DNA from: an uncultured Bacilli bacterium
Lineage (GTDB): Bacteria > Bacillota_I > Bacilli_A > RF39 > UBA660
Length of the DNA stretch: 64,000 nucleotides
Assembly: GCA_944358545.1 (NCBI GenBank)
Contig: CALVRJ010000002.1
Location: 3,187 to 67,186, forward strand
Reading direction: 5' to 3'
Shown here: piece by piece, positions 21,226 through 44,469 of the stretch
How the letters are laid out: each line of letters starts with the position of its first letter
How positions within the stretch are numbered: position 1 is the first letter of the stretch
Made by a program: the position numbers and the translations under genes
The notes under the pieces: generated by a model
What the model saw: only the letters and a program-made list of their open reading frames with translations
Databases searched by the model: none
What the model was told of the DNA's origin: nothing

Positions 21226-21855
21226 TTATAAATGCAATATGGCATCACATTCTTGAGCTAATTGTTCATTATGAGTTACCATAATTATAGTTTTTCCTTG
21301 TTTATTTAACTGTTTTAAAATACTCATAACTTTTCTTGCATTAGAATTGTCTAAATTTCCAGTTGGTTCATCAGCTAAAATAATATCTCCTTTTTTTAAC
21401 ATAATACGAGCCAAAGCTACTCTTTGCTGCTCACCTCCAGATAAAGTATAAACCTTCTTATTATTATAAGATGCCAAACCTACTTTGTCTAAAGCTTCTG
21501 ATACTTTTTCTTTTTTTTCTTTCAACGGAATTTTTTCATATTCCAAAGCCAAAAGCAAATTATACTCAACACTTTCATCATCTATTAAAGCATAATTTTG
21601 AAATAAATAGTTTATATTGTTACGGATATATTCATTTACTTGTTTTTCTTTTAACATAGCAACATCTTTTCCGTTAAACAATACTTCTCCAGTATAATCA
21701 AAATCTAATAAACCAATTATATTTAATAAAGTACTTTTACCACAACCACTTTTTCCAACAATAGCCACAAATTCACCATTATTTATTTTATAAGATAAAT
21801 CTGTGAATATAATCTTTTCACCAAAAGATTTACTTACTTTCTTTAATTCAATCAT
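21226..21855 (-). CDS. ABC transporter ATP-binding protein (bacteriocin export/immunity)
   Basis: Walker A GKSGCGKST, signature LSGGEQQR, Walker B IILADEPTG. Confidence 0.85.
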   Translation of the reverse strand: MIELKKVSKSFGEKIIFTDLSYKINNGEFVAIVGKSGCGKSTLLNIIGLLDFDYTGEVLFNGKDVAMLKEKQVNEYIRNNINYLFQNYALIDDESVEYNLLLALEYEKIPLKEKKEKVSEALDKVGLASYNNKKVYTLSGGEQQRVALARIMLKKGDIILADEPTGNLDNSNARKVMSILKQLNKQGKTIIMVTHNEQLAQECDAILHL

Positions 21856-24019
21856 TTGCTCCTCCTTTTAAATCAATATAAACTTTATTAAACTTATATT
21901 TCTGAATTACAAATATAGATATTAAACAATCAATTATCAAAAACAACGATACAGATATAATAAACAAAATAATATTAAGTAAATTTAAAATTAAAAGAAT
22001 AAAGAAAGATATAACTAAGGCAATAACAGTATACAAAATATTTCTCTTCATTATTGGTTCAAAAATTTTAAATTTATCAAATCCTAACAAATATTTCACT
22101 ACAACAGACTGTTGTTCACTTTTAACATATAATGAAAATACTTCAATAGAAATTATAAAGTAAACCAAAACAATCAAAGCAACTCCTAAACACACTACTA
22201 ACATTATTAACCTTGCACGTTGAATTTCGTCATTAAAATAATCTTTAAATGACATAAAATTACTTTGGCCAATCAAATTACTCAAACCAGCTTTTTTTAC
22301 ATCATCTAATACATAATCTAAAGTATTACTATTAACTTTTATTTTTAACCCCGTTGTTAATGAATTGCCAAATACGCTAATTCCTCTAGAACTTTCAATA
22401 TAGGATAATTTTATTGAATCATCAACAACACGTAATCTAGGATTTTTAACATATTTAACACTTAAATCTAGTCTATACGAATTAAAAGATTGATCATCAT
22501 ATAAATACGCTTTAAATTCAAGAGGTATATTATATTTTTCATAATCTTTTTTAGAATCTTCTAAATAATACTTTTTAAATTTTGGAACGATATTTTTTTC
22601 GCTTTTAGCAAACAAGAAAAATACTCCATCAATATTATCAATATCTACCAATTGACCATTTAAATTATATATTTTTATATTCTCTTTTTTTAAATAATTT
22701 CTATCAACAGAAGCATAATCAAAATATTTACCTTCACTTTCCCATTTTTTTATTCTTCTTTCTTCATCAGGTTTTACTTTTACATAATTACTAAATTGAG
22801 AATAAAATGTGGATAGCCTTTTATCATTATATATAATGTTATATAAATTAGCTTGTTTATCATAATCATATATTTCAGGTGAATCAGCATTAAAATCTTT
22901 TATAATTCCATAATCCAATAACTCTTTAGAATTATTATAAACTTTTAACGATGAATTTAAAGATGAAATAGAATTTCCTAATAAAGAAATGCCAACAATC
23001 ATCATTATAGTCATTAAAAGCTTTAATTTAGCACTTGTTTTGCCAATCTTTATTGCAACATTTTGTTTTTTTATAATATTAGAAGTGCGATAACTTTTTA
23101 AAATAAGATTAACACAAAGCATATTCAAAAAATAAGTAATTAACAATAACAAACATGTAATAATCAGCAAGAATAAGAACTGTAAAAGATTCATATTACT
23201 TGCTAAAATCAATGCTAAAATTAAAATAATAATTGAAAAAATAATATATATTTTTAGTTTATTTTTTATCATAATATTAGAAATTTTTATTTTGTCAAAA
23301 CCTAACAACTTCATACAACCAATTTTTTTAGAATTATAATAAGTATCATAAATTTCAAAAACAAAATAAAATATCATTATAAATATAATACTAAATACCA
23401 ACAATATAAATGTTTCGGTTTGCAAATCTGTAATTGATAAGCTGGTAGATATATCTTTATCAACAATTTTTTTTATTTGATTACTAAAATTAACAAAATC
23501 ATCGTAATTCTTGTAATAAACCAAATATTCACCATAATAATTTCCTTTTTCATTTATTAATGTCGAAAAAGTATAAAAATTATATTTGTCATTTTCCAAA
23601 AAATCTTTTATTAAAAAAACTTGTTTACTATCTTGATGATTATATGTAGAAATAAAAGAATCATCTGTTATTTTTTTATTTAATGACACAACTTTAAATT
23701 TTTTACTAATAATTTTTTTTATTTTGTTAATATTATCTAAAGAAACATAAACATTTTTTATAGAACCATCTTTACCAGAAATGTTTGATTTAGCTAAAAC
23801 AACTTTATTATCTTGTGCTAATTTTGCCACTTCTTTCATAGATTTATCATTAATAACGATATCATCGCTATAATTAATTCTAATGGAATCTCTACTATAT
23901 CCAAAAAAGTTCAAATATTGACTCGATTGAGAAAAATTTAGAAAAAGAATAGAAATAATTATTGCTACCAATATACATAAAATAGGTATTATTCTAGTTA
24001 CATATTTCAAAAAAACCAC
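21848..24019 (-). CDS. Bacteriocin-associated large integral membrane protein (Lcn972 ORF2-like, FtsX-like permease)
   Basis: 723 aa, N-terminal TM, large extracellular domain, two clusters of 3-4 TM helices; sits between the bacteriocin and ABC ATPase as in the lactococcin 972 operon. Confidence 0.6.
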   Translation of the reverse strand: MVFLKYVTRIIPILCILVAIIISILFLNFSQSSQYLNFFGYSRDSIRINYSDDIVINDKSMKEVAKLAQDNKVVLAKSNISGKDGSIKNVYVSLDNINKIKKIISKKFKVVSLNKKITDDSFISTYNHQDSKQVFLIKDFLENDKYNFYTFSTLINEKGNYYGEYLVYYKNYDDFVNFSNQIKKIVDKDISTSLSITDLQTETFILLVFSIIFIMIFYFVFEIYDTYYNSKKIGCMKLLGFDKIKISNIMIKNKLKIYIIFSIIILILALILASNMNLLQFLFLLIITCLLLLITYFLNMLCVNLILKSYRTSNIIKKQNVAIKIGKTSAKLKLLMTIMMIVGISLLGNSISSLNSSLKVYNNSKELLDYGIIKDFNADSPEIYDYDKQANLYNIIYNDKRLSTFYSQFSNYVKVKPDEERRIKKWESEGKYFDYASVDRNYLKKENIKIYNLNGQLVDIDNIDGVFFLFAKSEKNIVPKFKKYYLEDSKKDYEKYNIPLEFKAYLYDDQSFNSYRLDLSVKYVKNPRLRVVDDSIKLSYIESSRGISVFGNSLTTGLKIKVNSNTLDYVLDDVKKAGLSNLIGQSNFMSFKDYFNDEIQRARLIMLVVCLGVALIVLVYFIISIEVFSLYVKSEQQSVVVKYLLGFDKFKIFEPIMKRNILYTVIALVISFFILLILNLLNIILFIISVSLFLIIDCLISIFVIQKYKFNKVYIDLKGGAND

Positions 24020-25377: not shown

Positions 25378-26805
25378 TTATGTTATTCCATAACCATATA
25401 TATCTTTACTATTTATTTTATAATTTCTTTCTTTAACTTGATCACCAGAATTTCCCTCAATTGTATAAACCATATTGTTTTCAACTTTCTCAACAATTCC
25501 AACATGGTCTGCTCGGCCATCTTGTTGCCAATCAAAGAAAATAATATCTCCAGACTTTGGAATATATCCCCTATCTCGCCATCTAGACATAGATTTAAAC
25601 CAAGGCACACCTTGATTTGTACATGAAGAAAACCTAGGAACAATTACATTTAAATTACCAGATTGATTAGCTACCCAGCTTACAAATATCGCACACCACT
25701 CTACTCTCTGTTGAAATCCATACCATGACCAAAATTTTTGCCCACCTTTATTTCCAATTTCATTCTTTGCAATTTGAACCATATCGCTATTTCCTAATGA
25801 TTTTCCAAAAATTACATTTTTCCATAAAGATTTGTATTTTTCGTTTGTTAGCTCATAAAACTGTTTCTTTTGATCAATATTAAACATATTTAAATTCATA
25901 ATTTCTTCAGGTGATTTACCATCTATCCTAATCGTAAGCATTTTTATAGCTCTTCCATCTTCAGACTGTCTATCACTAATAGATGATGTAATAACGTTCA
26001 TCTCCCAAAAAATGGACTTTAAAATTTCAACCTTATTATCATCCATTGTAACAACTTCCGTTGCAACTTGTCCATTAGCTACTTTTACTGCATAAATTGA
26101 AAGTACATCTTCCCACGAAGCCATATTGGAAACAATTTCATAATCATCGTGAGGAGTTGTATTTTGAATTTCTAATATTTTATTATTTAAATCTATTTTT
26201 ATTTCTTCAACAACTTGACTTATAGTTTTCTCATTATTCATATTCTCACTTGAAAAGAAAATACCAAATACTGAATTAAGCAATATAGCAATTAAAGTTA
26301 TAACTAAAATTATTACAACAGCAATAACTCCAAATATTCCAAGAGGAACTATCATATTTTTCAATTTAAGAACATTAGCTTTTAAAGCACTATAAAACCT
26401 AGATTTTTTTTGTAAGTTTTTCTTTTTAGATTTAGTATTCTTTAAAGATAATAGTTTTTGTTTTACATATCCTTTTGCCTTATTAGGATTACTTTTAGAT
26501 TTACTTTTAAAGCTAAATTTGTTTTTCAATTTATTAGATTTAGAGTTTACTTGAGTATTATTAATTTCTTCTTTTAATTGATTTAATCGTTTTTTTTGTT
26601 TCTTAGCTAAGCTTTTAGATTGATATTTAAATACAGGTCTTATTGTATCCTTTATATACCCAATACTTTGTTCATTAACATTCTCATCGGTATATTCACT
26701 TTTTTCCTTAACATATTCTAATGCTTCCTTAGTCTTCTCGGCAACAATAAGACCTTTATCCAATAATTTTATTTTTTTTTTAGGTTTCTCTTTTATATCA
26801 GACAT
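25378..26805 (-). CDS. Conjugative-element peptidoglycan hydrolase with C-terminal CHAP domain (Tn916 Orf14 / TcpG analogue)
   Basis: N-terminal K-rich region plus TM; C-terminal CHAP Cys (EWCAIFVSW) and His (DHVGIVEKV). Confidence 0.7.
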   Translation of the reverse strand: MSDIKEKPKKKIKLLDKGLIVAEKTKEALEYVKEKSEYTDENVNEQSIGYIKDTIRPVFKYQSKSLAKKQKKRLNQLKEEINNTQVNSKSNKLKNKFSFKSKSKSNPNKAKGYVKQKLLSLKNTKSKKKNLQKKSRFYSALKANVLKLKNMIVPLGIFGVIAVVIILVITLIAILLNSVFGIFFSSENMNNEKTISQVVEEIKIDLNNKILEIQNTTPHDDYEIVSNMASWEDVLSIYAVKVANGQVATEVVTMDDNKVEILKSIFWEMNVITSSISDRQSEDGRAIKMLTIRIDGKSPEEIMNLNMFNIDQKKQFYELTNEKYKSLWKNVIFGKSLGNSDMVQIAKNEIGNKGGQKFWSWYGFQQRVEWCAIFVSWVANQSGNLNVIVPRFSSCTNQGVPWFKSMSRWRDRGYIPKSGDIIFFDWQQDGRADHVGIVEKVENNMVYTIEGNSGDQVKERNYKINSKDIYGYGIT

Positions 26806-29137
26806 CTAAGACTTCACTCGGTTTAGTTGTCATTAATTTATAAAGCTTTGTATTCTTAGGAAAATCATTTTCAAAAGGAACTAAAATGCTACCAATTCTA
26901 ATAAGGCCATGTCCTGCAGCCACATTAGTAATATAACTCATTTGAAGTTCAGAAATATTTAATAATTTGGCTAATTCAACTCTGTCTGTTGCGGCTTGAT
27001 TAAGCATAACAATAAATTCAGAATTTGCAAGCATCGTTCTTGCAGTATGACTTTGTAATAAATCATCGACATTCTGTGTTATCCCAGTCGCACATGCTCC
27101 ATATTTTCTAACACGTTTCCATAAAGTAAACAAGAAATTTGCCGAATACTCATGTTGAAATAACAAATATATTTCATCAATAAAAATATAAGTAGTTCTG
27201 CCTTTAGACCTATTTTTTGTTATTCTATTTAAAATACTATCTAATATAACTAACATTCCAAGTGATTGAAGTTGTTTACCCAAGTCTAAAATATCATAAC
27301 AAATTAATCTATTATTTGTATCTACATTAGTCTGTTTAGCAAAAGTATTCAAACTACCATTAGTAAATAATTCAATAGCAAGAGCTATACTCTTTGCTTC
27401 GGGTTCAGTTTGTTTCATTAACTCATCATGAAAATCTTGTAATGTTGGTGGTGTACCTTGATAATTTCCCTGCTGATAAAACCTATAAACATTTGCCGTA
27501 CATCTATCAATTATTGATTTTGCTTGTGGATTTAAATTGTTTTTTCCAATCAATTGCTCACAAAGTGATAATAAGAATTCAGACTTTAAAATAACTGGAT
27601 TTGCTCCATCACCATAATCTTTATTAAGATCCATCGCATTTATATGATTATTACTTGTTGATGATATTTTTATAACCTCACCATGTAAAGCATTTACTAA
27701 ATTACCATATTCCCTTTCAGGATCTATTATAATTATATCAGCATTTGGATTTTTAAGCATAGTGTTAACAATTTCATTTTTGGCTACAAAAGATTTACCA
27801 CTACCTGGAACACCTAAAATAAATGAATTTCCATTTAGTAAACTACCTCTATCAGCTAATATCATATTTTTACTAATCACATTTTGACCGTAATATACAC
27901 CATGAGGATGGTTAATTTCCTGCACTCTAAATGGCATAAAAACAGCAAGTGATTCTGTAGTTAAAGTTCTTAATGAATCTATTTTTTTAACACCGTAAGG
28001 AATTACAGTATTAAGTCCATCCATTTGTTGCCACTTTAATACTGCCAGCTGACATAAATGTTTTCTAGCGGTTGCAAGTAAAGCTTCGGTATCATTATCT
28101 AACTCTTTTTTACTATTTGCCGTATGCACAAAAGTTAAAGTGGATAAAAACATTCTTTGATCTCTAGTTGTTAAATCCTCTAAAAATTCTTTACTTTCTT
28201 TTCTTTGAAGTTCTAAATCATAAGGAATAACTGCACTAAAATTGTTTTTATCATTTTGTCTTCGTTGCCAATTTGTAATATTGCTTTCAACCCCAAGTCT
28301 TCTGTTTTCTACCTCACGAATTGCTTCATCCAAAGGAATTGGTAAAACATCTATGCTCATCATCATATTTTTATTTATATCAGTAAGTTCTGATACCATC
28401 GAATCTTTAATAAATGAAGCATATTCTTTTAAAAACAAAACTCTACCATATTTATTACCAAACATAAAATAATCCTTTTCAAAACTAAAACTATCTGGAC
28501 ATATATAATCTTTAAAACTATGCCCTTTTTTCATGTTAGATAATACATCAAAACTAAAGTAATTCTCTTCGCCAATTCTAAAAAAATCATAAAATACTTT
28601 TAATCTATTAACAGAATTCGTTCTAATACATTTAGAACCTAATTCAGCTAAACGATTAGATAACTCCACTTCAATTCTATTAAAATAATTTCTTGCCTCT
28701 TCTAAACTATTTTTATTTACAGTAATTGTTATATATTTTTCTTGAACAATATTATTAAAGTCAGATACTTTATTTTTAAGCATATCATTATACTCTCTTC
28801 GATATTCATCAAGACTATCATTAACATAATCAGATAACATATTCTTTTCAAAATCTTGTTTGTTAATATAATGATTATTTATTGTAATTTTTGTTATCGC
28901 ACTAGTATCAAATCCATTTAAAACTTCACTATATTTTAAAAACATTGCTTCTTTATCATTTTTAGAAGCAACGGCATAATTTACATCAGTAAACTTATAA
29001 GATACAGAATACTTATTTTCTCCAACTAAAAAAATTCCATCTTCAAACATTTTTTGAACTGGAATAACATCTTGAACTCCTTTAGGTACAATATATTTTT
29101 CATGTTCATTGTTTTTTATTTTTTTGAATAGATTCAT
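26798..29137 (-). CDS. VirB4-family conjugal transfer ATPase (TcpF / Orf16 / PrgJ-like)
   Basis: 779 aa, Walker A GVPGSGKS, Walker B IIIDPERE, AAA_10-like architecture. Confidence 0.8.
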   Translation of the reverse strand: MNLFKKIKNNEHEKYIVPKGVQDVIPVQKMFEDGIFLVGENKYSVSYKFTDVNYAVASKNDKEAMFLKYSEVLNGFDTSAITKITINNHYINKQDFEKNMLSDYVNDSLDEYRREYNDMLKNKVSDFNNIVQEKYITITVNKNSLEEARNYFNRIEVELSNRLAELGSKCIRTNSVNRLKVFYDFFRIGEENYFSFDVLSNMKKGHSFKDYICPDSFSFEKDYFMFGNKYGRVLFLKEYASFIKDSMVSELTDINKNMMMSIDVLPIPLDEAIREVENRRLGVESNITNWQRRQNDKNNFSAVIPYDLELQRKESKEFLEDLTTRDQRMFLSTLTFVHTANSKKELDNDTEALLATARKHLCQLAVLKWQQMDGLNTVIPYGVKKIDSLRTLTTESLAVFMPFRVQEINHPHGVYYGQNVISKNMILADRGSLLNGNSFILGVPGSGKSFVAKNEIVNTMLKNPNADIIIIDPEREYGNLVNALHGEVIKISSTSNNHINAMDLNKDYGDGANPVILKSEFLLSLCEQLIGKNNLNPQAKSIIDRCTANVYRFYQQGNYQGTPPTLQDFHDELMKQTEPEAKSIALAIELFTNGSLNTFAKQTNVDTNNRLICYDILDLGKQLQSLGMLVILDSILNRITKNRSKGRTTYIFIDEIYLLFQHEYSANFLFTLWKRVRKYGACATGITQNVDDLLQSHTARTMLANSEFIVMLNQAATDRVELAKLLNISELQMSYITNVAAGHGLIRIGSILVPFENDFPKNTKLYKLMTTKPSEVLDV

Positions 29138-29480
29138 CTGATTTCTCCCTTCTATTTAATAACTCATAATAATAATTTGTTGGTCTAAAAGTTAATTGCT
29201 TAGGAACTAATAGCTCAGATCTAATCCATGCTAAAACAAACTTTTCAGCTGACATTCCATTATAATTAAAGAAGCCAAGAAAAGCAAAAGGAAAAGCTCC
29301 AAGCATACATATCCATGAACTAATTTCTGTCCCCACTAAATTGTTAAATAATATATATAAAAATAAAGCTACAACACAAGCAAGTAAAGAAAAAACAAAT
29401 TGCCTAACAGTCAAACCAAAATAAATATTTTCTTTATAATTTCTTATCTCTTTATTTATTTTAACTTCCATAAGAAACAC
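29106..29480 (-). CDS. Small conjugation membrane protein (PrgI/Orf17-like, 2 TM)
   Basis: 124 aa, two TM helices, directly upstream of VirB4 as in Tn916/pCF10 modules. Confidence 0.45.
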   Translation of the reverse strand: MFLMEVKINKEIRNYKENIYFGLTVRQFVFSLLACVVALFLYILFNNLVGTEISSWICMLGAFPFAFLGFFNYNGMSAEKFVLAWIRSELLVPKQLTFRPTNYYYELLNRREKSDESIQKNKKQ

Positions 29481-30642: not shown

Positions 30643-30954
30643 CTACTTTAAAATAATATCTAAAATTGGTTGTATAAAAACCATTATAATTCCCCCACCA
30701 ACAGACAAAAAGCCATCAGTTCTTTGTGTCGCATCATGACTACGAATTGAAATTCCAATTTGCATAACACCAAAACCTGTAAAAATAACACCTATTGCCC
30801 TAACAAAACTAAATATAAAGTTTGTCAAATTATCTACAACAGTAATCGGATCATCTGCTGCAAACACAGAACCTCTCGTCCAAAACATCAATGAAATAGC
30901 AAACGTAATAAACTTATATAAACTTAAAAATTTATTTTTTCTCACTTTTCTCAC
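30643..30954 (-). CDS. Small T4SS membrane protein (TcpD/Orf19-like)
   Basis: 103 aa, signal anchor plus 2 TM helices. Confidence 0.4.
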   Translation of the reverse strand: MRKVRKNKFLSLYKFITFAISLMFWTRGSVFAADDPITVVDNLTNFIFSFVRAIGVIFTGFGVMQIGISIRSHDATQRTDGFLSVGGGIIMVFIQPILDIILK

Positions 30955-32758
30955 CTTCTTTATTTCTATTTATATAATCATCAATTTCTTCAGATGAAAT
31001 CACTGTATAATTTGATTCATTATCCATGCTAATACTTTCATTTTCTTCGCTATTATTTTCATCAAAACTTATAACTATCGAAGCAACTTCATTGTCAGTT
31101 TTTCCATGCACATATATACCACCTTCTCCATCAGCAGAAAATTTAATATTAGGGTGCTTTAAAATATTATATTTATTATCTTTAACTGGTCTTTCGCCTC
31201 TTATAAAAAGCAAAGCATAATTATTATCAAGCATTCTTACCTCATCAGGTGTCATAAGTTCTCTGCCACTTAATTGATAATTAGTAGAATAATTACCAGA
31301 CCTGCCAGATGTCTTTCCATGGGTATCTAAATCTATTGTTTCTTTTCCAAGAAGTTCACTAATATATTTATGTGTAGATTGCTCATTCCCACCTAAATAA
31401 AGTAACTCATCACAATTACCAACAATAGATTCCCATTGCTTTTCAAATAAAGCTTTTAATTGAGCTAAATTCTGTAATATGATTGAAACTGACACATTCC
31501 TACTTCTCATAGTAGACAATATTTTTTCAAAATCATCTGGTAAACTTACATTGGCAAATTCATCCATTACAAAGTGAACATGCATAGATAAACTTCCACC
31601 ATATTTATTATCTGCTAAGAAAAAAAGTTGTTGGAACAGCTGAGTATATAAAATACTTACTAAAAAATTAAAAGAAGTATCATTATCTGGAATTAAAGCA
31701 AATAAAGCAACTTTCTTTTCACCTAGTGAAGATAAATCTAATTCATCTACCATAGTTAAAGAAGCCATACTTTCAAGATTAAATTTTTCAAGTCTACTTG
31801 CCAACGTTATTTGTATCGACTTCAACGTTTTACCAGAACCTGAACGATAATTTTTATAATATTTAACAGCTATATGATTCGGATATTCTTCTTCTAATTT
31901 TTCAAACAAAATATCTAACGGACTTAAATACATATCATCATCCTCTTTTACTTCACCTGCTCTAAGCATTTCAAGAACCATGCTAAAGTTTTGTTCATCT
32001 TCTGGAGCTTCATATTTTAGATAAAAAATTAATGCAAGTAATAACATGCTCGCTGCAGTATCCCAAAATGGATCATTAGTAGAAGAAGCTTTTGGAGTTG
32101 TAGCTTTAAACAAATTGGTAACTAATTTTTGAACATCATTATCATCTCTAAGATATACAAAAGGATTATAACAATGACTTTTATCCATATTTATTAAATC
32201 TAAAACCTTTACCTCATAACCAAATTTTTCTAAAAGATTTCCTGTATCTCTCAAAAGCTCACCTTTAGGATCTAAAACAACATATGAACAATTACATTGC
32301 ATTATATTAGGTTTACAATAAAATCTAGTTTTCCCTGCACCACTTCCGCCAATAACTAAAGTATTCAAATTTCTACGATGTATTCTTCCATCTAATCCAA
32401 TACAAACATTATTTGTTAATATTTTGTTATTCAAATCAGAATTTTGCTTATATTTTTTATTTATACTTCTCGCATTACCCCACTTTGCCGAACCATATTC
32501 TACCTTTCTTCTATAGTTCTTCTTTGATGACAAAATAATTCCATAGACAATTACATATACACAAAGACATACTGCAATCGTTTTAAAAGTGCTTTCACAC
32601 AACACTATTTTAAATGGATTACTTAAAATGTTTGAAAAATTATTTACTATTCCTACTAATCCATGATTAGATATAGGTGCGATTAATAATGCAAACCATA
32701 AAACAAATACAAACCCAAACAAGAATAACAAAAGCTGTTCTTTATAACTATTGTTCAT
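30932..32758 (-). CDS. Type IV coupling protein (VirD4/TraG/TcpA-like)
   Basis: N-terminal 2 TM helices; Walker A GGSGAGKT; Walker B VMDEFAN. Confidence 0.8.
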   Translation of the reverse strand: MNNSYKEQLLLFLFGFVFVLWFALLIAPISNHGLVGIVNNFSNILSNPFKIVLCESTFKTIAVCLCVYVIVYGIILSSKKNYRRKVEYGSAKWGNARSINKKYKQNSDLNNKILTNNVCIGLDGRIHRRNLNTLVIGGSGAGKTRFYCKPNIMQCNCSYVVLDPKGELLRDTGNLLEKFGYEVKVLDLINMDKSHCYNPFVYLRDDNDVQKLVTNLFKATTPKASSTNDPFWDTAASMLLLALIFYLKYEAPEDEQNFSMVLEMLRAGEVKEDDDMYLSPLDILFEKLEEEYPNHIAVKYYKNYRSGSGKTLKSIQITLASRLEKFNLESMASLTMVDELDLSSLGEKKVALFALIPDNDTSFNFLVSILYTQLFQQLFFLADNKYGGSLSMHVHFVMDEFANVSLPDDFEKILSTMRSRNVSVSIILQNLAQLKALFEKQWESIVGNCDELLYLGGNEQSTHKYISELLGKETIDLDTHGKTSGRSGNYSTNYQLSGRELMTPDEVRMLDNNYALLFIRGERPVKDNKYNILKHPNIKFSADGEGGIYVHGKTDNEVASIVISFDENNSEENESISMDNESNYTVISSEEIDDYINRNKEGEKSEKK

Positions 32759-33549: not shown

Positions 33550-34315
33550 GGCTAGATTTCTCCTTATCTAATAAATTTTCTTCTTTTTTATTTACAAGTG
33601 ATTCTTTTATTTTCCTTAATTTTTTTCTAACAGACTCTTTCTTTTTAGTACCAATTTCTGAGCTTTTTTTGTTCTTCAAGGAAGGTTCGGACTGATTTTT
33701 TTTTACTTTGTTTTCAGACTTGTTTTTAGATTGATTGGAAAATAAATCTTTCATTATTTCCTCATCACTTTTATCTTTGTTTTTATTTTTTGAAGGCTTT
33801 GACAATATATCATCCACAATATCATCATCTTTAGTTCTAACATTTTTACCATGAGTTTTCTTATTATAATCTTTAGGACTATCGTTTTCATGCTCTACAG
33901 TTGTCTCTTTATAAGTTGAAAATTTATATCTATTTATTATGCGATTAATTCTTGCAGCGTCTTCGGCCCTTACCATAAAATCAATCATTCCATCTTTGTC
34001 TTGATGTTTTTTATCAATTAATAAAGCATATAATATTCCATATCTTTTAGCAACTTGTTGAAAAAATTTTAATTCTTCTTTTCTTACCGAAAACACTTTT
34101 AAAGGTCTACCTGACTTTAGTAATTTTTCAAGTTTAGTTTTTCCTTTAGTCTGTTTCTTCCCACGATAAATAGCATAAAGTAAAGCAGCAATATTTTTTG
34201 CTGCCACTCCTGTTAATCTCAAAGTAACTTCTGTTCCTTGCAAGCTCATTCTTACAACCGATTCAGCTGCCTCTCCTGAATTCATTTCTATCAACTTCCT
34301 TTCTATTTTCTTCAT
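33539..34315 (-). CDS. Hypothetical protein with ~120-aa Lys-rich low-complexity tail (relaxosome accessory candidate, PcfB/DUF3801-like?)
   Basis: N-terminal ~130 aa globular, then a K/N/S-rich tail; immediately downstream of the relaxase. Confidence 0.35.
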   Translation of the reverse strand: MKKIERKLIEMNSGEAAESVVRMSLQGTEVTLRLTGVAAKNIAALLYAIYRGKKQTKGKTKLEKLLKSGRPLKVFSVRKEELKFFQQVAKRYGILYALLIDKKHQDKDGMIDFMVRAEDAARINRIINRYKFSTYKETTVEHENDSPKDYNKKTHGKNVRTKDDDIVDDILSKPSKNKNKDKSDEEIMKDLFSNQSKNKSENKVKKNQSEPSLKNKKSSEIGTKKKESVRKKLRKIKESLVNKKEENLLDKEKSSHER

Positions 34316-35576
34316 CTTGTTTTTTTATATTATTTTCAATCATTGATTTTCTTTTTTCAATTTCGTAAAGTAGCTTAACCTCTCTACGTAAATCATTTAT
34401 TTCTTTACTTAATCGACTATTTTCAAGTTGATATGTTACCAAATCTTCTTTACTAGTAGTCTTCTTTATCTTATAATTTAACTTCTCTTTTCTATCTAAT
34501 AAAGTATCTAGTTGCTTTTCTTTCTTTGTTTTAAATTTAATAAAATCTACATCAGTAATTATATTATTATTTCCAAGTAATTCCGTTTGTTTCATTAGAT
34601 TATCAAACTCTTTTAAATCAGATCTAATTTCTGGAATTAATTTATAATTTAAATTCTTTTTAGGAAACACTTCAAGCAAATAACAATAATACATAAATAA
34701 TCCGTAAATTCCTTTATTTCTGTTTTTCATTTTAAAAAAGTTTTCTACAGGTGTTCTCCCTTTTTTAATAAAATTTTCTTCAATTCTTTTTATTATATTT
34801 GCTTTACTATACTCATTACCAAATGTTCTAGAAACCCTAACTTTAAACCCGTCTAGCTTTCTTCTTATACTAAATATCTTATTAATGATAGTAACTTCAT
34901 ATCCCATTGAATTTAATTTATTTAAAAAGTCTTTATACGAATAAGAATTTAAAATAGCCGCATCAAGATCATCTTTTATCATTTGATAATAATCAGAAGA
35001 ATTAACATATTTTTTATAAAAGTTTTCATACTTAAATCCTGCTTTACTCTTCTTTTCAGTAAGTATACTTAATCCATATTCTGCACATAAATCGTCCGAA
35101 AGTCTTCTTAATCTAGCATAATTAATATTGTTATCATAATATTTTTTTCCATCTTTAAAGGAAACTGAATTAATAACAAAATGGTTATGAATGTGTTTAG
35201 TATTTTGGTGAGTACTAATAACAACTTCAAATCTATCTCCCCACATTTCGTTAGCAAGTTGAACACCTATTTTATGAGCAAGTTCCGGAGTAACTTCACC
35301 TTCCGCAAAAGACTGATAAGCATGGAATCCTAAAATACCGCCTTCTTTTTTATATGACTTTTTAGTTAAAATCATTTCCTTATAAGCCGTCTCAACAGAA
35401 CAATTAAGTGCAGAAACATAACATTCCTTTTCTGATTTTAAATCTATAAGTTCCTTATCATGCAAATTAAAAAACTCTTCACCATAAGAAGAGTTTCTCG
35501 TTTTTTCAATATTAGTTGTATATTCTATAACATGATCTAATCTTTTGTTAATTTTCCATATTTTTGTAGTAGCCAT
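34263..35576 (-). CDS. Conjugative relaxase (MobA/VirD2 Relaxase domain, MOBP-like)
   Basis: Histidine triad HQNTKHIHNHFVIN (H.D/N..H.H.H); N-terminal Tyr region; C-terminal coiled-coil. Confidence 0.65.
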   Translation of the reverse strand: MATTKIWKINKRLDHVIEYTTNIEKTRNSSYGEEFFNLHDKELIDLKSEKECYVSALNCSVETAYKEMILTKKSYKKEGGILGFHAYQSFAEGEVTPELAHKIGVQLANEMWGDRFEVVISTHQNTKHIHNHFVINSVSFKDGKKYYDNNINYARLRRLSDDLCAEYGLSILTEKKSKAGFKYENFYKKYVNSSDYYQMIKDDLDAAILNSYSYKDFLNKLNSMGYEVTIINKIFSIRRKLDGFKVRVSRTFGNEYSKANIIKRIEENFIKKGRTPVENFFKMKNRNKGIYGLFMYYCYLLEVFPKKNLNYKLIPEIRSDLKEFDNLMKQTELLGNNNIITDVDFIKFKTKKEKQLDTLLDRKEKLNYKIKKTTSKEDLVTYQLENSRLSKEINDLRREVKLLYEIEKRKSMIENNIKKQDEENRKEVDRNEFRRGS

Positions 35577-35608: not shown

Positions 35609-37078
35609 TTATTCATAAAAGAAAAAGTTTATTTCATCAGTACCAATAATGGAATCTATATTTTCTATTTCAGTTTCATTTATCAATACAGATTCATCAA
35701 TCTTAAAAGGAAGCCAAGAAGAATTCCATAATTCTTCTTTACAACCATAAACTTTTTTAGCTAATAAAGTAGAGTATTCTTTATCTCTGTTAAACTTTAA
35801 AGTTATACGCTGCAAACACATATTTATGTCATCTGTATTAGGTATTTCTTTAAATTTATTTCTAATACTTTCTATATAATAATCTATCTTATCAGTACAA
35901 AAGCTAAGTAACTTACTTAATATCCCTGAACAAGCCATATATGATTTAGGATTTCTAATTAATATATCGGTAGTTATACTGATTAATTGTTCCAAACATT
36001 CTGGTTCTTCTTCTAAATCTTTCAATTTTTTTTCATAGAAATTTACAAGCATTTTTTTTACAAAACTACTGTTTGGATTTTTCAAAGAAAACTGTCTTAT
36101 TTTTAATAACCAGTTTAAAATACTTTTATCTTCAACTATCAAAAACAAACTATTCAATTTATCTTGTTTAATAGAATTAGATATAACATCATCACAAACA
36201 AAAGTCTTTTTAGTATTAAATTTCATGTTTAATTCTGATAAAACTTCTGATAAAATTTTCAAAATCTTTTCTAAATCAGATTTACTATTTGAAAAAATTC
36301 TATAATCATCTCTAAATCGTATTATCTTATAATCATATATATCTTTTAATCTTTCAGATAATAACATATCTGCATATCCTAAAACTATTTCGGCAATAAA
36401 ATCCATTAATACACTTCCCTGAGGAATACCATTTGTTTGTCCATATGACATACATTGTATTCTCTCATCAATGATATTACCTATTATAGGGTCAAAGCGA
36501 TGGTCTTTCGCATATAATTTATCATGTATTGCCCACGAAATAGAATGAGTATATATAGAACTATAGCAATTTTCAATATCCGCATGAGCCATATATTTAT
36601 AATTCAAAGATAATTGTATACTTCGATTTTCAATGTTCTCTAACCAATTATCTATTATATTTGCAGTAGAACTTTTATCATTATCCGAATCAAAAGGAAT
36701 ACTATAACATTCAATATTACATAAATTTCTAAATTGTTTTAATCGTTCTGTTATAATTTTCCAATTATCAGGTTTTGTTATTTCATAAACTAAATCTATA
36801 TATAAAATTGGATGTATTATTTGCAGTTGTCGCCAAGTATATTTACCATCCTTGTTCGACATATAATTGTAATTAACATTCTCACATTTTTTAACTTGTT
36901 TTATTAAGTCTTTATCAAGTTTACATGAAAGATCATAAAAATATTTACATTCTGACATTTTTAATAAAGCACCAAAATCAAAATATTTTGGCAAATCAAT
37001 CGAACAATAATTAGAACCTTCTAGGAAAAAAAGCTTTGCTTGATTAGCCTCCATATCTATAACGCTTAATCTTTCCAT
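35609..37078 (-). CDS. Reverse transcriptase-like protein (Abi/unknown-group, putative defence RT) embedded in the mob operon
   Basis: RT palm motifs: A (MAHADIENCYSSI), B (GIPQGSVLMDFIAEIVL), C-like (IIRFRDDYRIF). No maturase/X or endonuclease domain and no canonical YADD. Confidence 0.6.
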   Translation of the reverse strand: MERLSVIDMEANQAKLFFLEGSNYCSIDLPKYFDFGALLKMSECKYFYDLSCKLDKDLIKQVKKCENVNYNYMSNKDGKYTWRQLQIIHPILYIDLVYEITKPDNWKIITERLKQFRNLCNIECYSIPFDSDNDKSSTANIIDNWLENIENRSIQLSLNYKYMAHADIENCYSSIYTHSISWAIHDKLYAKDHRFDPIIGNIIDERIQCMSYGQTNGIPQGSVLMDFIAEIVLGYADMLLSERLKDIYDYKIIRFRDDYRIFSNSKSDLEKILKILSEVLSELNMKFNTKKTFVCDDVISNSIKQDKLNSLFLIVEDKSILNWLLKIRQFSLKNPNSSFVKKMLVNFYEKKLKDLEEEPECLEQLISITTDILIRNPKSYMACSGILSKLLSFCTDKIDYYIESIRNKFKEIPNTDDINMCLQRITLKFNRDKEYSTLLAKKVYGCKEELWNSSWLPFKIDESVLINETEIENIDSIIGTDEINFFFYE

Positions 37079-39683: not shown

Positions 39684-40325
39684 TTAATATTTCTCTTTTG
39701 AATTTAAGTAATTAATATAAATAGTTTGCTCTGTATCGTTATTTTTGGTACAAGTAATTAACGTTAAAGTACTTTTATTTGAATTACGTTGTATTTTTAC
39801 TTTGCCAGTTTTTTTCACGTTATAAATGTTATCTAAAATATACTCATATTTTATTCCAGAATAATAAATATACACTTTAGCACCTGTTTTTAATTTATAT
39901 AAATTTTTAAAATAAGATATATTACTAGTTCCAGAATGTGCTGCCAAAATCAAATTTCCTTTATCAACATCAGGAAATTGTGAACCTTCAATAATTTGGA
40001 TTCCTTTATCAACATCATTTCTAAAAGAATTAAAATCTACAAGTCCTGTTTTTAATAAAACAGAAGGTATTTCTAACACTGCAATATAAACATTTTCTGA
40101 TTGACTATTTACATTTTTAATTTCTGTATTTGATTTATTATTTTGCTTGAAAAAAGCGTCTACAGATTTCTCATTTTCAATTAAAGGTTCTTCATATTTA
40201 TAAAGATTATAGGTATATAACGTTATTCCAATAAGAAGTAAAAAAAGGCCTAATAGTAATAGACCTTTTGAATTCTTATTCTTTTTTACTTTTATTTCTT
40301 CTTTTTTTAACTTCATCATAAACAA
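39684..40325 (-). CDS. Sortase (probably class B) dedicated to the adjacent adhesin
   Basis: N-terminal TM, catalytic His (LILAAHSG) and TLITC Cys motif. Confidence 0.7.
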   Translation of the reverse strand: MFMMKLKKEEIKVKKNKNSKGLLLLGLFLLLIGITLYTYNLYKYEEPLIENEKSVDAFFKQNNKSNTEIKNVNSQSENVYIAVLEIPSVLLKTGLVDFNSFRNDVDKGIQIIEGSQFPDVDKGNLILAAHSGTSNISYFKNLYKLKTGAKVYIYYSGIKYEYILDNIYNVKKTGKVKIQRNSNKSTLTLITCTKNNDTEQTIYINYLNSKEKY

Positions 40326-41841
40326 TAATTCCTATTCCAGCAGCACATATAATAACAGCGATTATATTACCAATGTTAGATTGATTTTTTTGAGTATTAG
40401 GTACATTAACAATTTGTTCATTGGTCATTGTAGCTTTAACTATTTCACCATTTTCTTTGATTTCAAAATAAACTTTTTCATCTGATAATTTATAACCAGT
40501 AGCAGGATTACGTTCTATAATATAATATTTTTGACCAGCGAGTAAATCTGTAATGACAATCTTTCCATTCTCATCTGTTACTCCTTGATAAACGAGTCTA
40601 TCATCTTCTGTGAAAATCATTATCTCAGTGTTTGGAATAACATTACCATTGGTAAAGTCAAGTTTTGTAAACTCGAGTGTCCCTTTTGGTAAATAGTTTT
40701 GAATGTCTAATTTTTTAATAATCTTACCATTCACTAAATCATTTTTAGTTGTTTCAAAATAATATTTTTCATTACTTACCATATTTCCTTGTGCTGATTT
40801 ACCTTCAACTAAGAAATATTTACCGTAATACATATTTTCAAGTTTAACAAATCCAAGTTTATCTGTTGTTAAAGTATCAATAAGATCATATTTTTTATAA
40901 ATAACTTTACCAGTACTATCAACTATATCTTCATTTGCATAAATTGCAAATTCAACTTCAGGTAAATTTATTGTTTCATAACTATAACTGCCATTAGAAT
41001 AAACAATTTTTTCGCCTTTCTTATTAATTTCAACAGAACCACCATTAGATTTAATTTTTATTTCAAAATTTAACGGATTACTAATTCTTAATGTAGCTAA
41101 TGTTTGAGAACTCTCTTTATAGTAAATCAAATTAACTTGATTATCATAGTTTTTCTTAACAAACTTAAGAGTTTCTTCACCAATAAAATTATCATCTAAT
41201 TTAATATCTAAATTATTAACATTAACTGATACTTTGTTTTGTCCATTATAATTAAGACTAAATTGATTTAATACTTTGTTTGTATCGTTTAAAACAATTT
41301 CATCACCCATGTTAGCTTCAATTTTATCATTTGCAAAACTAGGTAAAGAACTATAATTATTCACCAAATTTAAAATATCATTCTTTTCTTTAGTTAAATC
41401 AATTTCTGTACCACCATTTCGTTCTGTGGTATATTTTGTTTCTACATTTCTTGCTTTTTCCCAAATAAGTTGTTGAGCAGCCATATAATATTTATCTGTT
41501 TGATGACCAGGGTATTCATAACCGAAATAACCAACTTTTTCAATAAAATCTTCTTGTTCATCCGAAAGACCAACTACACTCCAATCAGTTGTTGAATTGT
41601 ATGTGTGATCAGTTATTTGAACTAATGGTTCAATACAATAAGCTAACTTTTCATTTAAATAAAACTTGTTAGCGTGTCCAGTCATTATCTTACCGGTATC
41701 TTTATCTTTCTGATAATAATAAGCCCCATCTATTACTTCTTTTGTAAACTGTGAATCATTCTCCGCTGCCTTAACTGTATTAGCCGAACCAACTGAAAAA
41801 ATTGGTAACAAAGCTAAAATAATTCCTAATAATTTTTTCAT
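40276..41841 (-). CDS. Sortase-anchored surface adhesin: thioester domain plus 2 Cna-B/prealbumin-like domains (TIE-protein-like)
   Basis: Signal peptide from MKKLLGIILALLPIFSV. Cys in AYCIEP and Gln in AAQQLIWE match the thioester [YF]C / TQxA(I/V)W pair. Two TDENGKIV...GQKYY.IE-type Cna B repeats. C-terminal VPNTQ-hydrophobic-KKRRNK sorting signal. Track start 41889 lies inside an upstream terminator hairpin. Confidence 0.5.
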   Translation of the reverse strand: MKKLLGIILALLPIFSVGSANTVKAAENDSQFTKEVIDGAYYYQKDKDTGKIMTGHANKFYLNEKLAYCIEPLVQITDHTYNSTTDWSVVGLSDEQEDFIEKVGYFGYEYPGHQTDKYYMAAQQLIWEKARNVETKYTTERNGGTEIDLTKEKNDILNLVNNYSSLPSFANDKIEANMGDEIVLNDTNKVLNQFSLNYNGQNKVSVNVNNLDIKLDDNFIGEETLKFVKKNYDNQVNLIYYKESSQTLATLRISNPLNFEIKIKSNGGSVEINKKGEKIVYSNGSYSYETINLPEVEFAIYANEDIVDSTGKVIYKKYDLIDTLTTDKLGFVKLENMYYGKYFLVEGKSAQGNMVSNEKYYFETTKNDLVNGKIIKKLDIQNYLPKGTLEFTKLDFTNGNVIPNTEIMIFTEDDRLVYQGVTDENGKIVITDLLAGQKYYIIERNPATGYKLSDEKVYFEIKENGEIVKATMTNEQIVNVPNTQKNQSNIGNIIAVIICAAGIGIIVYDEVKKRRNKSKKE

Positions 41842-41871
41842 AAATAATTTCTTCCTTTCTAATTCTTCAAT

Positions 41872-41896
41872 AAAAAAAGCGATTACCAAGATCGCT
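41872..41896 (-). terminator. Hairpin AGCGAT(N7)ATCGCT plus T7 between the par genes and the adhesin gene
   Basis: Read directly; T-run on the minus strand. Confidence 0.4.
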
Positions 41897-42139: not shown

Positions 42140-43090
42140 CTATCTTTCCATCTGATGTCTTTCTTTTTGCTTTTTACAGTAATATTCAACTGCTTTAATT
42201 ACAAATTCCTCTTTTTCTTTTTCAGAAACCAAATTTTGTGGAAGTATATTTCTTAAACGATTCATATTGATTTTTAGTTTTTGAACTTGATTAGGTTTTT
42301 CAATATTTAAAATGTTTTCAATTGTTGAATAATCTAATTTACTTTTTTGACTTAATTCTTTTAACTGAATTGCCTGACTTAATGAAGGTGTAATCAAACT
42401 ACATTCTATAAAATCAGACAACATCGTTTGCTCTTCTTTTGATAAAAACGAAATTTCAACAGCCGGTCGTAAAGCTATACTCGGAGTATTACCTAAAACA
42501 TTATTATCAACAAATTTTAAAATGTCAGGTATAAGCTCTGTTAAACGAATATATCTTTGAACTTGTCTACCACTTTCACCAAATTCTTTACCTACAAGTT
42601 CAGCACTACTAAACTTATCGACCACTGGTCGCAAAGTTAAGATATCTTTTTTACCTTGATGCTTTATTGCCTCCAGTTTCATTTTATAAGCAAATGCTCT
42701 CTCGCTAGGGAGTATCTTTTCCCTTTGCATATTACTATCGACCATAATAATAGTTGCTTCATCATCGGTTAACTCCCGAATAATACACGGCATAGTTGTC
42801 TTTCCAGCAATTTCACTTGCTCTTTTTCTTCGATGACCAGAAATCATTTCATATCTACCGTTTTTTGGACGTATTATAGCAGGTACTAAAACACCACTTT
42901 CTCTTATACTATCAGCCATCTCAAATAATTCATCATTATCATTGACTTTAAATGGATGATTTTCAAATGAATCAATTTCAGATAAATTTACATCTACTAT
43001 CTTTTGAGCATTATTATATATGCGTTCTTCTTCCGTTGAAAATAAATCATCTAACTTGTTCAATCTTTCCGACAAATCGTTCTTTTTCAT
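42140..43090 (-). CDS. parB: ParB/KorB-like partition protein
   Basis: ParB box II ISGHRRKRA; overlaps parA. Confidence 0.7.
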   Translation of the reverse strand: MKKNDLSERLNKLDDLFSTEEERIYNNAQKIVDVNLSEIDSFENHPFKVNDNDELFEMADSIRESGVLVPAIIRPKNGRYEMISGHRRKRASEIAGKTTMPCIIRELTDDEATIIMVDSNMQREKILPSERAFAYKMKLEAIKHQGKKDILTLRPVVDKFSSAELVGKEFGESGRQVQRYIRLTELIPDILKFVDNNVLGNTPSIALRPAVEISFLSKEEQTMLSDFIECSLITPSLSQAIQLKELSQKSKLDYSTIENILNIEKPNQVQKLKINMNRLRNILPQNLVSEKEKEEFVIKAVEYYCKKQKERHQMER

Positions 43091-43868
43091 TGCTTATCAC
43101 CTCCAAAGCAAGAGAACAATATGCTTCAGATACCGGATTTTTTCTATCATAAGATAAAATACTTTTACCATAAATAGAAGATTCTGCGGTTTTTATAGCA
43201 ATTGGTATTTTTGATTTAAAAATATTTAATTGTGAACCGTATTCACTATGCAATAATTCATCTACGTTTTTAGATAAATTAGTTCTACGATCAAACAATG
43301 TCAATAAAACACCAGCAATTGATAAATTAGGATTTATTTGTCTTCTAACTTTATTGATAGTTTGTATTAATTGTGTCATTCCACGAAGTGCCAAATATTG
43401 ACTTTGAACAGGAATTATAACTTCATCTGAAGTAGCTAATGCATTAACAGTAATCATTCCCAACGATGGTGAACAATCAATCAAAATATAATCATATTTT
43501 TTCTTCAAATCATATATACATCTTTTTAATGTATACTCCCTACTCATGGCGTTAACTAAAGACATTTCCATAGCTGATAAATCCAAATTTGCGGGAATCA
43601 AATCTAGTCTTTCCTTATGATGTAATATAGCTTTATCAAAATATATAAGCTTATCATTCATAGATTGTTCCATTAAATCAGCTAAAGTTAAAGGTAATTC
43701 ATCCGAGTTATACCATCCCATATAAGTTGTTAAGTCTCCTTGAGGATCTGTATCAACTAATAAAACCTTTTTTCCAGCATTAACCAAAGCTACACCTAAA
43801 TTAAATACTGTTGTTGTTTTACCAACACCACCTTTCTGATTAACAACAGCAATAATTTTACCGTCCAT
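43047..43868 (-). CDS. parA: ParA/Soj family partition ATPase
   Basis: Deviant Walker A NQKGGVGKTT; 273 aa. Confidence 0.85.
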   Translation of the reverse strand: MDGKIIAVVNQKGGVGKTTTVFNLGVALVNAGKKVLLVDTDPQGDLTTYMGWYNSDELPLTLADLMEQSMNDKLIYFDKAILHHKERLDLIPANLDLSAMEMSLVNAMSREYTLKRCIYDLKKKYDYILIDCSPSLGMITVNALATSDEVIIPVQSQYLALRGMTQLIQTINKVRRQINPNLSIAGVLLTLFDRRTNLSKNVDELLHSEYGSQLNIFKSKIPIAIKTAESSIYGKSILSYDRKNPVSEAYCSLALEVISNEKERFVGKIEQVR

Positions 43869-43886
43869 TTTTATCCCTCCTTTCCA

Positions 43887-43919
43887 TAAAAAAAAGCCAT
43901 CTTAAAAAATAAAATGGCT
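43887..43919 (-). terminator. Hairpin AGCCAT(N13)ATGGCT plus T8 immediately upstream of parA
   Basis: Read directly; would block read-through from the uvrB-fragment promoter. Confidence 0.4.
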
Positions 43920-43994
43920 ATGTACACAAGCAAAATATGTTAAAAAGGTAAATACCATCGTTACCAAAATTAAATTTTTAATTATACTTTCGCC

Positions 43995-44015
43995 ACACAT
44001 AAAAGTCACAAACTT
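43995..44015. repeat. Right copy of 21-bp direct repeat ACACATAAAAGTCACAAACTT (candidate attR core)
   Basis: Exact match to 15838-15858. Confidence 0.6.
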
Positions 44016-44116
44016 TTTGTGTCCATCTAGTATTATTAAGTTTTTTTAATGTTTTTTAATACTTTTTTAGGGATTATCAAACATCAAAAAGTCTTAAAAA
44101 TCAACGGTTTTTAATG

Positions 44117-44395
44117 TTAAACATAGTATGAAACGAAATATTCGACCGCATTTTCAGGAAATAATTCCTTAAGCTCTGCGTATAACTGTCCAGCAAGCGT
44201 CTTATTATGAGCTAAAACTAAAGTTGGTTTTTGAACCCTTTCAATCACATTGGCAATCGTAAAAGTCTTTCCAGTACCTGTTGCTCCAAGTAATACTTGA
44301 CTTTTCTTACCTTCTTCAATCCCTTCCACTAATTTATCTATCGCCTGTGGCTGATCACCACTAGGTTTAAACTTTGAATGAATCTTAAATTTCAT
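44117..44395 (-). pseudogene. uvrB': Duplicated, diverged uvrB 5' fragment (codons 1-91, then stop)
   Basis: 92-aa ORF identical in protein to UvrB residues 1-91 except N32S. At nt level, the first ~58 nt are identical to 15663-15720, then ~85-90% identity with mostly synonymous changes. Walker A retained; RBS AAAGGTGA. Confidence 0.8.
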
Positions 44396-44469
44396 AATAT
44401 CACCTTTTCAAAAACACAAAAAATATTCTATCATTTTTTTCTATGATTAACAACAGAAAGAGATTAAAA

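Follow-up and report, generated by a model that had tools for sequence, protein, structure and literature searches.

Tyrosine-integrase ICEs (integrative and conjugative elements) and IMEs (integrative and mobilizable elements) of Firmicutes insert in the end of a housekeeping gene and restore it; insertion in a 5' end is rarer, an example being the IMEs that use ebfC or tatD at its 5' end (PMC5704250). An element of this kind is described here from a 64,000-nt stretch of DNA ("the window") of an uncultured Bacilli bacterium (assembly GCA_944358545.1, contig CALVRJ010000002.1, positions 3,187 to 67,186; G+C 27.9%). With a probability of roughly 0.9, a 28.7-kb ICE has inserted site-specifically in uvrB, splitting the gene, and a surrogate promoter and gene start carried by the ICE keep UvrB whole. 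This report demonstrates the polarity of the insertion, the junction interval, the gene content of the ICE, a recent transfer between species, and a family-wide link to uvrB. Coordinates are window positions unless another contig is named, and uvrB nucleotides are counted from the ATG. The features described, all the listed ICE genes among them, lie on the minus strand, which is the strand of uvrB.

The window ICE shares with the gene-end ICEs and IMEs (PMC5704250) an insertion in a conserved gene, a flanking repeat that holds the gene end, and a product that is (almost) unchanged. The intact uvrB (13768-15720) encodes a 650-aa protein with the full UvrB domain set, the first 261 nt being ICE-borne. 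The differences are: i) the target is uvrB, and the replaced part amounts to ~88 codons plus promoter and ribosome-binding site (RBS); ii) two recombinases are present, not one; and iii) the repeat is only 88% identical, the surrogate being that of a foreign species. Full-text literature searches found no case of uvrB as the target of an ICE, IME or prophage, and the ICE/IME reviews and surveys checked do not mention it; uvr genes on plasmids were the subject of two papers that had looked relevant. The mechanism, gene-end targeting with restoration, is already known; it is the target uvrB, the long replaced segment with its promoter, and the tandem recombinase pair that set this ICE apart.

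Integrases of the lambda type have an N-terminal arm-binding domain, and repeated arm-type sites occur in both arms of attP. The window ICE resembles these systems in its short, co-varying direct repeats, which lie in both arms ~100-400 bp from the core, and in the small helix-turn-helix (HTH) protein beside int. In contrast to them, it has two paralogous integrases and an arm that carries a functional gene segment, and its arm sites are candidates read from sequence. The Tn916 and CTnDOT integrases tolerate non-identical overlap ("coupling") sequences. Comparable junctions are seen in a sister species of the window organism, where the two ends differ inside the presumed overlap, the left being ICE-type and the right host-type. 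Unlike Tn916 and CTnDOT, the ICE uses a single specific site, and the heterology could also stem from a crossover at nt 262-264 or from later mutation.

The "Tyr duo" mobilizable transposons MTnPi1-3 of Prevotella use a short degenerate target, TTAC N5 AA (PMC5704250). The likeness of the window ICE to them lies in its two tandem, distantly related tyrosine recombinases (IntA and IntB, 30% identity). This arrangement, with an IntB-like gene directly upstream of IntA, recurs at 76 of the 80 best metagenome loci; this and the other neighbourhood counts below were made on the best 80, mostly from human gut, of at least 383 loci confirmed in a metagenome scan with an IntA alignment. Tn554 TnpA/TnpB and XerC/XerD are further comparable systems. 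The ICE family uses one conserved gene motif and no degenerate target and is therefore not filed as MTnPi-type, a separation made by target. Cis-mobilizable elements (CIMEs) keep attL and attR and have lost the integration and transfer genes (PMC5704250). Two loci outside the window are CIME-like, namely an integrase-less 4-kb insert in contig L025, whose P' arm is homologous to that of the ICE, and a decayed remnant in contig L020.

The native start of uvrB

An open reading frame (ORF) of 92 codons followed by TAA (44117-44395; stop codon 44117-44119) repeats the start of uvrB. The two copies form a direct repeat of 278 nt (15443-15720 and 44118-44395) that is 88% identical (245/278; BLAST E ~1e-91) and by far the longest repeat of the region. 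Its spacing, 28,675, equals the length of the ICE including one core. The homology begins at the ATG, the sequences 5' of which are unrelated; nt 1-57 show a single base difference, at nt 54, and the remainder is ~85% identical. Of the codons that differ, 29 do so synonymously; the 2 non-synonymous changes are N32S and, at the junction codon 92, D/V. A first-pass annotation of the window, made by a model from the letters and their ORFs, had noticed this displaced and mostly silently diverged copy and had credited it with a promoter region and RBS of its own. Both observations were borne out: a promoter-like site with an extended -10 (TG), TTGTTA-17-TAGAAT, lies at 44453-44425, and a GGTG RBS precedes the ATG of the fragment. 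It is plausible that a 92-aa Walker-A peptide could be made from this ORF.

The polarity of the two copies is given by two element-free contigs, L016 and L017, which come from two different cohorts and belong to the same species as the window. They were found via members of UvrB protein clusters, as a variant with S32, the residue of the fragment, that runs on into the gene body. Their uvrB is uninterrupted, and the host genes upstream of it are those upstream of the fragment in the window. The first 269 nt equal the fragment copy with 1 mismatch; from nt 270 the sequence is that of the window from 15451 down to 14029, with 4 mismatches in nt 271-1692 (99.7% over the covered part). From the 5' end of the intact gene, the empty sites differ at 30/261 nt. 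They lack everything between the two uvrB cores, including the surrogate copy and both copies of a 21-bp repeat that is considered below. Because L016 and L017 join the fragment copy directly to the uvrB body, the fragment is the native 5' end.

The fragment is accordingly the native uvrB start with its native promoter, and the opening ~261 nt of the intact gene are ICE, as is all that lies upstream of them. The native coding segment (nt 1-261) forms the body of the fragment ORF at 44135-44395, and the native promoter and RBS region (44396-44469), contiguous with the upstream host genes in L016 and L017, would now drive the fragment only. The ICE-borne segment, also nt 1-261, lies at 15460-15720 in frame with the host gene. 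The host-derived remainder (nt 275-1953; 13768-15446) is 99.7% identical to the empty sites over the stretch that these cover and 83.8% identical to the sister species.

Both element-free contigs also carry a common nonsense change at uvrB nt 1066, K356 to stop by AAA to TAA (L016 nt 5402-5404; equivalent to window ~14655). The sole ICE-free uvrB alleles found for the window species are therefore truncated at 355 aa.

Origin of the surrogate start

Contigs L018 and L019 are from the sister species and bear the same ICE at the same place. Compared with the window, the ICE is identical over the 4000 nt that precede the uvrB ATG (4000/4000), nt 1-269 of uvrB are 97.8% identical (263/269), the remainder of uvrB is 83.8% identical, and the downstream host DNA 78.6%. 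This profile marks the boundary between ICE and chromosome, and it marks a recent transfer between species. The surrogate itself matches the 5' end of the intact gene in L020 at 261/261 positions, an element-free, native sister-species gene (L021) at 260/261, and the displaced fragments of the sister species at ~96%. The native copy of the window is only 82-86% identical to these same sequences. By this comparison the surrogate is a uvrB start of sister-species type.

The differences between the native and surrogate segments are almost all silent because the surrogate is the uvrB 5' end of the sister species. By the Nei-Gojobori method, dS is 0.80 and dN 0.014 for the two 5' segments, and dS is 1.4-1.5 and dN 0.04 for the remainder of uvrB compared between the window species and the sister species. 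As judged by these values, the silent divergence is that of two species' working uvrB genes under purifying selection. The first-pass annotation had taken the divergence as mimicry of a target gene; it reflects no mimicry pressure but ordinary interspecies divergence. Its broader proposal, that an element targeting the 5' part of uvrB carries a surrogate and leaves the fragment displaced outside, stands with the roles exchanged: L016, L017 and the identity break against L018 make the fragment the native copy and the start of the intact gene the surrogate, a reversal that the annotation had itself named as a possible outcome.

The crossover site

The last difference between the native and surrogate copies is at nt 261. 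The empty site has the native base there, but agrees with the intact gene at nt 270 and again from nt 275 on. Seen from the fragment, its match to the empty site extends to nt 261-269 and is lost from nt 270/275. The switch from native to ICE sequence thus falls in nt 262-274, present as GTTTCATACTATG in attL (44122-44134) and as GTTTCATATTATG in attR (15447-15459). In metagenome pairs that carry the same ICE in very different hosts, the switch is at nt 264 or earlier, and in L018 and L020 host-type sequence begins at nt 264-265. A complete second example, GCA_011262095.1, has the fragment, ParA, further genes, IntB, IntA and uvrB in this order on one NCBI contig (~35.5 kb). Its identity block at the junction is TTTGTTTCTTATTAT, and the element arm diverges directly after the second Tyr codon. 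These alignments place a common, imperfect core at GTTTCATAYTATG (nt 262-274), with the uvrB-side switch at about nt 262-264.

The crossover corresponds to codons 88-92. These belong to a conserved motif, FVSYY|DYYQ, where the UvrB beta-hairpin has its base. In the solved structures 2D7D (B. subtilis) and 1D9X (B. caldotenax), the residues aligned with Y90 Y91 D92 Y93 Y94 Q95 of the window protein are Y92 Y93 D94 Y95 Y96 Q97. The target is one of the most conserved codon strings of uvrB, which fits a broad host range.

The following mechanism is proposed. The ICE inserted at codons 88-92 (F-V-S-Y-Y|D) by site-specific recombination over GTTTCATAYTATG, with IntA and IntB presumably acting together on the core. 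The host promoter and first ~88 codons were thereby stranded beyond the far end of the element, where they now form the 92-codon ORF. The near end supplies its own promoter, RBS and surrogate first ~88 codons (15460-15720), fused in frame to host codons ~89-650, and full-length UvrB is still encoded. Transcription of uvrB would now start from the promoter that the ICE carries. The native gene would be re-formed on excision, with attB as ...GAATATTTCGTTTCATATTATGATTATTATC..., and the predicted junction of the excised circle is attP, ...GAGTACTTTGTTTCATACTATGTTTAACATT..., preceded by the promoter arm of the ICE.

Several points weigh against site-specific insertion as just described. No excised circle (attP junction) or transfer was observed, and nothing matched the predicted attP/attL junction when viral contigs were scanned for it. 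The element-free contigs are not the direct ancestor of the window strain (2 differences in nt 1-270). The surrogates differ at 3/261 sites between ICEs that are otherwise identical (0/4000 differences), and therefore some exchange with host copies also occurs. The sister-species junctions differ inside the core (L020 attL GTTTCTTAC versus attR GTCAGTTAT; L018 attR GTTAGCTAC), the left junction keeping ICE-type TTTC(A/T)TA and the right having a host-type AGY serine codon. This mismatch possibly represents overlap heterology that is tolerated, a crossover at the leftmost positions of the core (nt 262-264), or a later change. Cleavage is placed only to an interval within the core, not to exact positions.

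Alternative explanations

The strongest of the rivals, though improbable, is RecA-dependent homologous recombination, in which the 270-nt surrogate would serve as a homology arm and no site-specific integration would be needed. It would account for the mosaic surrogate copies that differ between otherwise identical ICEs, and in the sister species, where surrogate and native copies are 96-100% identical, homologous exchange would be feasible. In L020, moreover, the fragment is less like the native sister-species gene (L021) than is the 5' end of the intact gene. However, the native copy of the window is unbroken to nt 261, and the switch lies within the last 13 nt of the homology. The same break point is found in 87 of 121 UvrB-fragment cluster representatives (75 cut right after YFVSYY, 12 after YYDY), and it recurs in hosts whose UvrB is only 70-77% identical, where homologous recombination would be very inefficient. 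The recombinase pair and the HTH_17 gene are also conserved beside the site.

Much the same doubt, only deeper, attaches to the original proposal that the 21-bp repeats are the attachment sites of the element, the fragment having come to lie beyond them through successive integrations or through an attachment site spanning both the repeat and the uvrB start. The repeat, AAGTTTGTGACTTTTATGTGT, is exact, direct and unique to the two ends: it occurs exactly twice in the 64 kb (15838-15858 and 43995-44015), and 0 times in shuffled sequence. The left copy is 118 nt upstream of the uvrB ATG. The fragment does lie ~100 bp outside the right copy, as had been stated, with 101 nt between its stop codon and the repeat. 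Yet both copies are inside the ICE, 379 nt (left) and 106 nt (right) from the cores, and are absent with the surrogate from the empty sites; with the repeats internal, neither successive integration nor a spanning attachment site is needed. The identity break against L018, at nt ~262-270, is also away from them. In the distant relative GCA_011262095.1 (IntA 53% identical), a different 31-nt repeat, TAATAAATTTGTGGCCGAAATTCGTTTTTAT, takes the same relative positions inside both arms.

The near-identical first 57 nt of the two copies (56/57) had been seen as the other part of such an attachment site. At the nucleotide level, 0 of 1627 other 57-nt windows of uvrB are as similar between the two species. 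Against this, the stretch holds only ~10 synonymous sites, at which 1 difference is seen and ~5.7 are expected (Poisson p ~0.02). Native copies of the sister species (the L025 fragment and L021) have the 57 nt of the surrogate; the near-identity therefore belongs to the genes of the two species and is no peculiarity of the ICE. GCA_011262095.1, an independent family member, has mismatches throughout this stretch. With the crossover at nt 262-274, the first 57 nt were rejected as the attachment core.

Two further readings are next to impossible: a reversed polarity, with the 5' end of the intact gene native and the fragment an element-carried decoy or relic, has only the symmetry of the repeat in its favour and is contradicted by the empty sites of L016 and L017 and by the finding that the 5' end of the intact gene has travelled, together with the ICE, to a species with a uvrB body of 16% divergence, and a simple local duplication unrelated to the element would explain a direct repeat of the gene start, but not copies at dS ~0.8 and dN ~0.014, one of them identical to another species' gene, with a complete ICE in the intervening 28.7 kb.

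The ICE family

Site-specific insertion at these uvrB codons recurs across a large family of related elements. More than 1300 homologues of IntA were found at E <= 1e-10. In all five of the homologue contexts examined (5/5; IntA identity from 75% down to 53%), tandem recombinases are located 220-260 bp upstream of uvrB, and the downstream host genes differ. Among the best 80 metagenome loci, a uvrB start is found just downstream of IntA on the same strand in 61. The other 19 lack an adjacent uvrB; 15 of them end within 500 nt, and 4 carry extra cargo genes after intA. These four, which have no uvrB within 1-3 kb, were considered as instances of a different target and rejected: extra cargo is present instead, and in one of them (L098) uvrB is found 2.7 kb downstream. 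A scan of a genome collection with IntA gave one useful match (93% identity), on a Candidatus Coprosoma intestinipullorum contig of 4 kb that lacks the junction.

The other side of the insertion can be followed through the fragment. The 92-aa sequence as query matches mostly short UvrB N-terminal proteins. Those cut at the motif include 42 distinct N-termini and carry a wide variety of tails, and the contigs that bear several of them are 100-480 kb long. Furthermore, many 102-aa UvrB fragments of different hosts (P0157, P0176, P0180, P0195, P0218, P0241 and others) share a related 12-residue tail, for example RNTSKTILFSTF and SNTLKTLLFQHF; in one subfamily of the elements the right arm is therefore conserved and read in frame.

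Several pairs of metagenome loci are 97-100% identical over the ICE side, comprising the recombinase end, the arm and the surrogate, yet fall to only 70-77% identity over the 300 UvrB residues that follow, and they are unlike in G+C content. One and the same element therefore gives rise to chimeric UvrB proteins in distantly related hosts. Near-identical ICE ends beside very different uvrB bodies provide a clean marker of transfer between genera.

These loci amount to a large family of conjugative elements, found in Bacillota of the chicken and human gut and all on the same uvrB codons, those of the conserved tyrosines at the base of the beta-hairpin. No description of such a family turned up in the literature searched. 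The puzzling uvrB fragment is explained as the normal scar of a site-specific ICE. Short "UvrB" ORFs of ~90-105 aa in these genomes mark an ICE boundary, not a pseudogene, and an annotated uvrB 5' end and promoter may be foreign. More speculatively, and with the odds well against it, the ICE family could take over host nucleotide excision repair by replacing the promoter, RBS and first 88 residues of UvrB, with the Walker-A peptide and ICE genes ending up downstream of the native promoter; mismatched overlaps would perhaps be tolerated by the tandem recombinases, explaining the host range.

Arms, promoters and repeats

The left arm of the ICE, upstream of uvrB (15721-15968), is 100% identical in L018 and L019, and its layout is kept in L009, L012 and L024. 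It contains a promoter-like sequence, TTGTCT-17-TAAAAT (15960-15932), and an RBS, AAGGAGG (15731-15737). The promoter-like piece (15932-15960, GGTTGTCTTATATTTTTATAAATGTTAAAATAC) stands directly after the intA stop and is ~88-90% identical to the native uvrB promoter of the sister species (counterparts at L021 3884-3935 and at L025 4922-4979 and 9178-9226). The arm of the ICE hence resembles a uvrB promoter and 5' coding region that were captured and are split by a ~190-nt ICE-specific insert.

The right arm (P'; 43869-44121) extends from the core to parA and includes the stop codon of the fragment. It is missing from the empty sites and is homologous to the P' arms of L020 and L025. The right 21-bp repeat overlaps a promoter-like GTGACT-17-TATAAT that faces parA, and a terminator-like hairpin is found just upstream of parA (43895-43919). 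At this hairpin, read-through that comes into the ICE from the native uvrB promoter would be halted or modulated. A similar hairpin, AGCCATCTTAAATAAATAAGATGGCT, is located upstream of parA (~5500) in L023, a relative with 53% IntA identity.

The 21-bp repeats are probably arm-type binding sites of the integrase, and are read so because their positions are fixed and their sequence co-varies between the two arms; an operator of a regulator is the alternative. The left-arm copy is recognisable in L009, L010 and L012. The Arm-DNA-binding domain PF14657 is recorded for some IntA homologues, not for the window IntA.

Three exact copies of GYAACGAATTT were also noted, two in the left arm (15760-15770 and 15782-15792) and one inside the 3' end of intA (16003-16013). 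Paired equivalents, GCAACGAATTT or ACACGAATTT, are present in L009, L012 and L024. The count alone is not significant in the window (7 versus 4.5 expected).

A coupling of the ICE to the SOS response, through a LexA-controlled native uvrB promoter, was considered and found unsupported. The Cheo box CGAAC-N4-GTTCG has no match with up to 2 mismatches in the native promoter or ICE arms and none with up to 1 mismatch in the whole window; a near-match was found only in one distant host.

Gene content of the ICE

The ICE occupies 15460-44121, 28,662 bp (28,675 bp with one 13-bp core). Its genes were called by Pfam and NCBIfam matches, together with precomputed Pfam data on L002. The features expected of an ICE are present: its own recombinases; a relaxase, coupling protein and type IV secretion system (T4SS) ATPase; and attL and attR, with an empty site in relatives. 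No prophage genes (capsid, terminase, tail or lysis) were found among the Pfam matches of the element ORFs.

The recombination module is adjacent to uvrB. IntA (433 aa; 15969-17270) has PF00589 (E = 3e-23) and a SAM-like domain, and IntB (401 aa; 17257-18462) has PF00589 (E = 1e-17). The two are paralogues in tandem, and both show GLRK, H(D/A)LRH, LGH and a C-terminal Y in a pairwise alignment inspected by eye; residues H350, R353, H376 and Y386 are invariant in 21 homologues. Next comes an HTH_17 protein (18472-18684; PF12728, E = 4.5e-8), a candidate excisionase that has the same position in L010 and L018.

Beyond it are a PemK toxin of the PemK/MazF type (18923-19309), part of a toxin pair, a sigma-like gene (19729-20202), and a short S26 signal peptidase (20783-21127) near a cargo of ABC ATPase and seven-transmembrane (7-TM) genes (21226-24019). 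The 723-aa membrane protein of this cargo has weak similarity to bacteriocin-associated 7-TM immunity proteins. The Rfam pemK RNA motif (19409-19490; 55.7 bits), upstream of the PemK/MazF toxin gene, is the only match in an Rfam search of the whole window.

The transfer module comprises a CHAP hydrolase (25378-26805), a VirB4-like ATPase (26798-29137; TraG P-loop/AAA_10), PrgI (29106-29480), a coupling protein (30932-32758; T4SS-DNA_transf, 5.6e-63) and a relaxase of the MobA/VirD2 type (34263-35576; PF03432, 1e-40). A 489-aa reverse transcriptase (RT; 35609-37078) is located between the relaxase and a MobC-like gene. It comes closest to the antiviral models Drt4/Drt3b and AbiA, with none of their cut-offs reached; Rfam finds no group II intron RNA at this RT, which is kept at the same place in L002 and L003. 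The MobC-like gene and primase-like, single-stranded-DNA-binding (SSB) protein and sortase genes lie between the RT and a SpaA/thioester adhesin with LPXTG (40276-41889). ParB (42140-43090) and ParA (43047-43868), the latter next to the fragment, complete the ICE.

Related loci in the sister species

L021 and its companion L022 were at one stage taken as ICE remnants, a view that was dropped: they hold an element-free sister-species uvrB with a group II intron further upstream, and L025 has the same native promoter. The intron RT (RVT_1 and GIIM; 2425-3696 in L021/L022) lies ~300 nt upstream of that uvrB.

The remnant in L020 (1-4000) is a decayed ICE, with ~3.8 kb between the fragment and the intact uvrB. 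It retains a ParA fragment, a DUF5684 protein and a truncated IntA of 344 aa.

The 4-kb insert of L025 (5280-9255) occupies the same uvrB site and has no recombinase of any kind. Its genes are for CYTH, HhH-GPD and Maf and for a guanylate-kinase-like P-loop protein of 506 aa. The homology of its right arm to that of the window ICE includes a sequence like the 21-bp repeat. The insert looks like a CIME-type derivative, and its cargo may serve defence or nucleotide metabolism. The repeat in L025 reaches as far as the native promoter.

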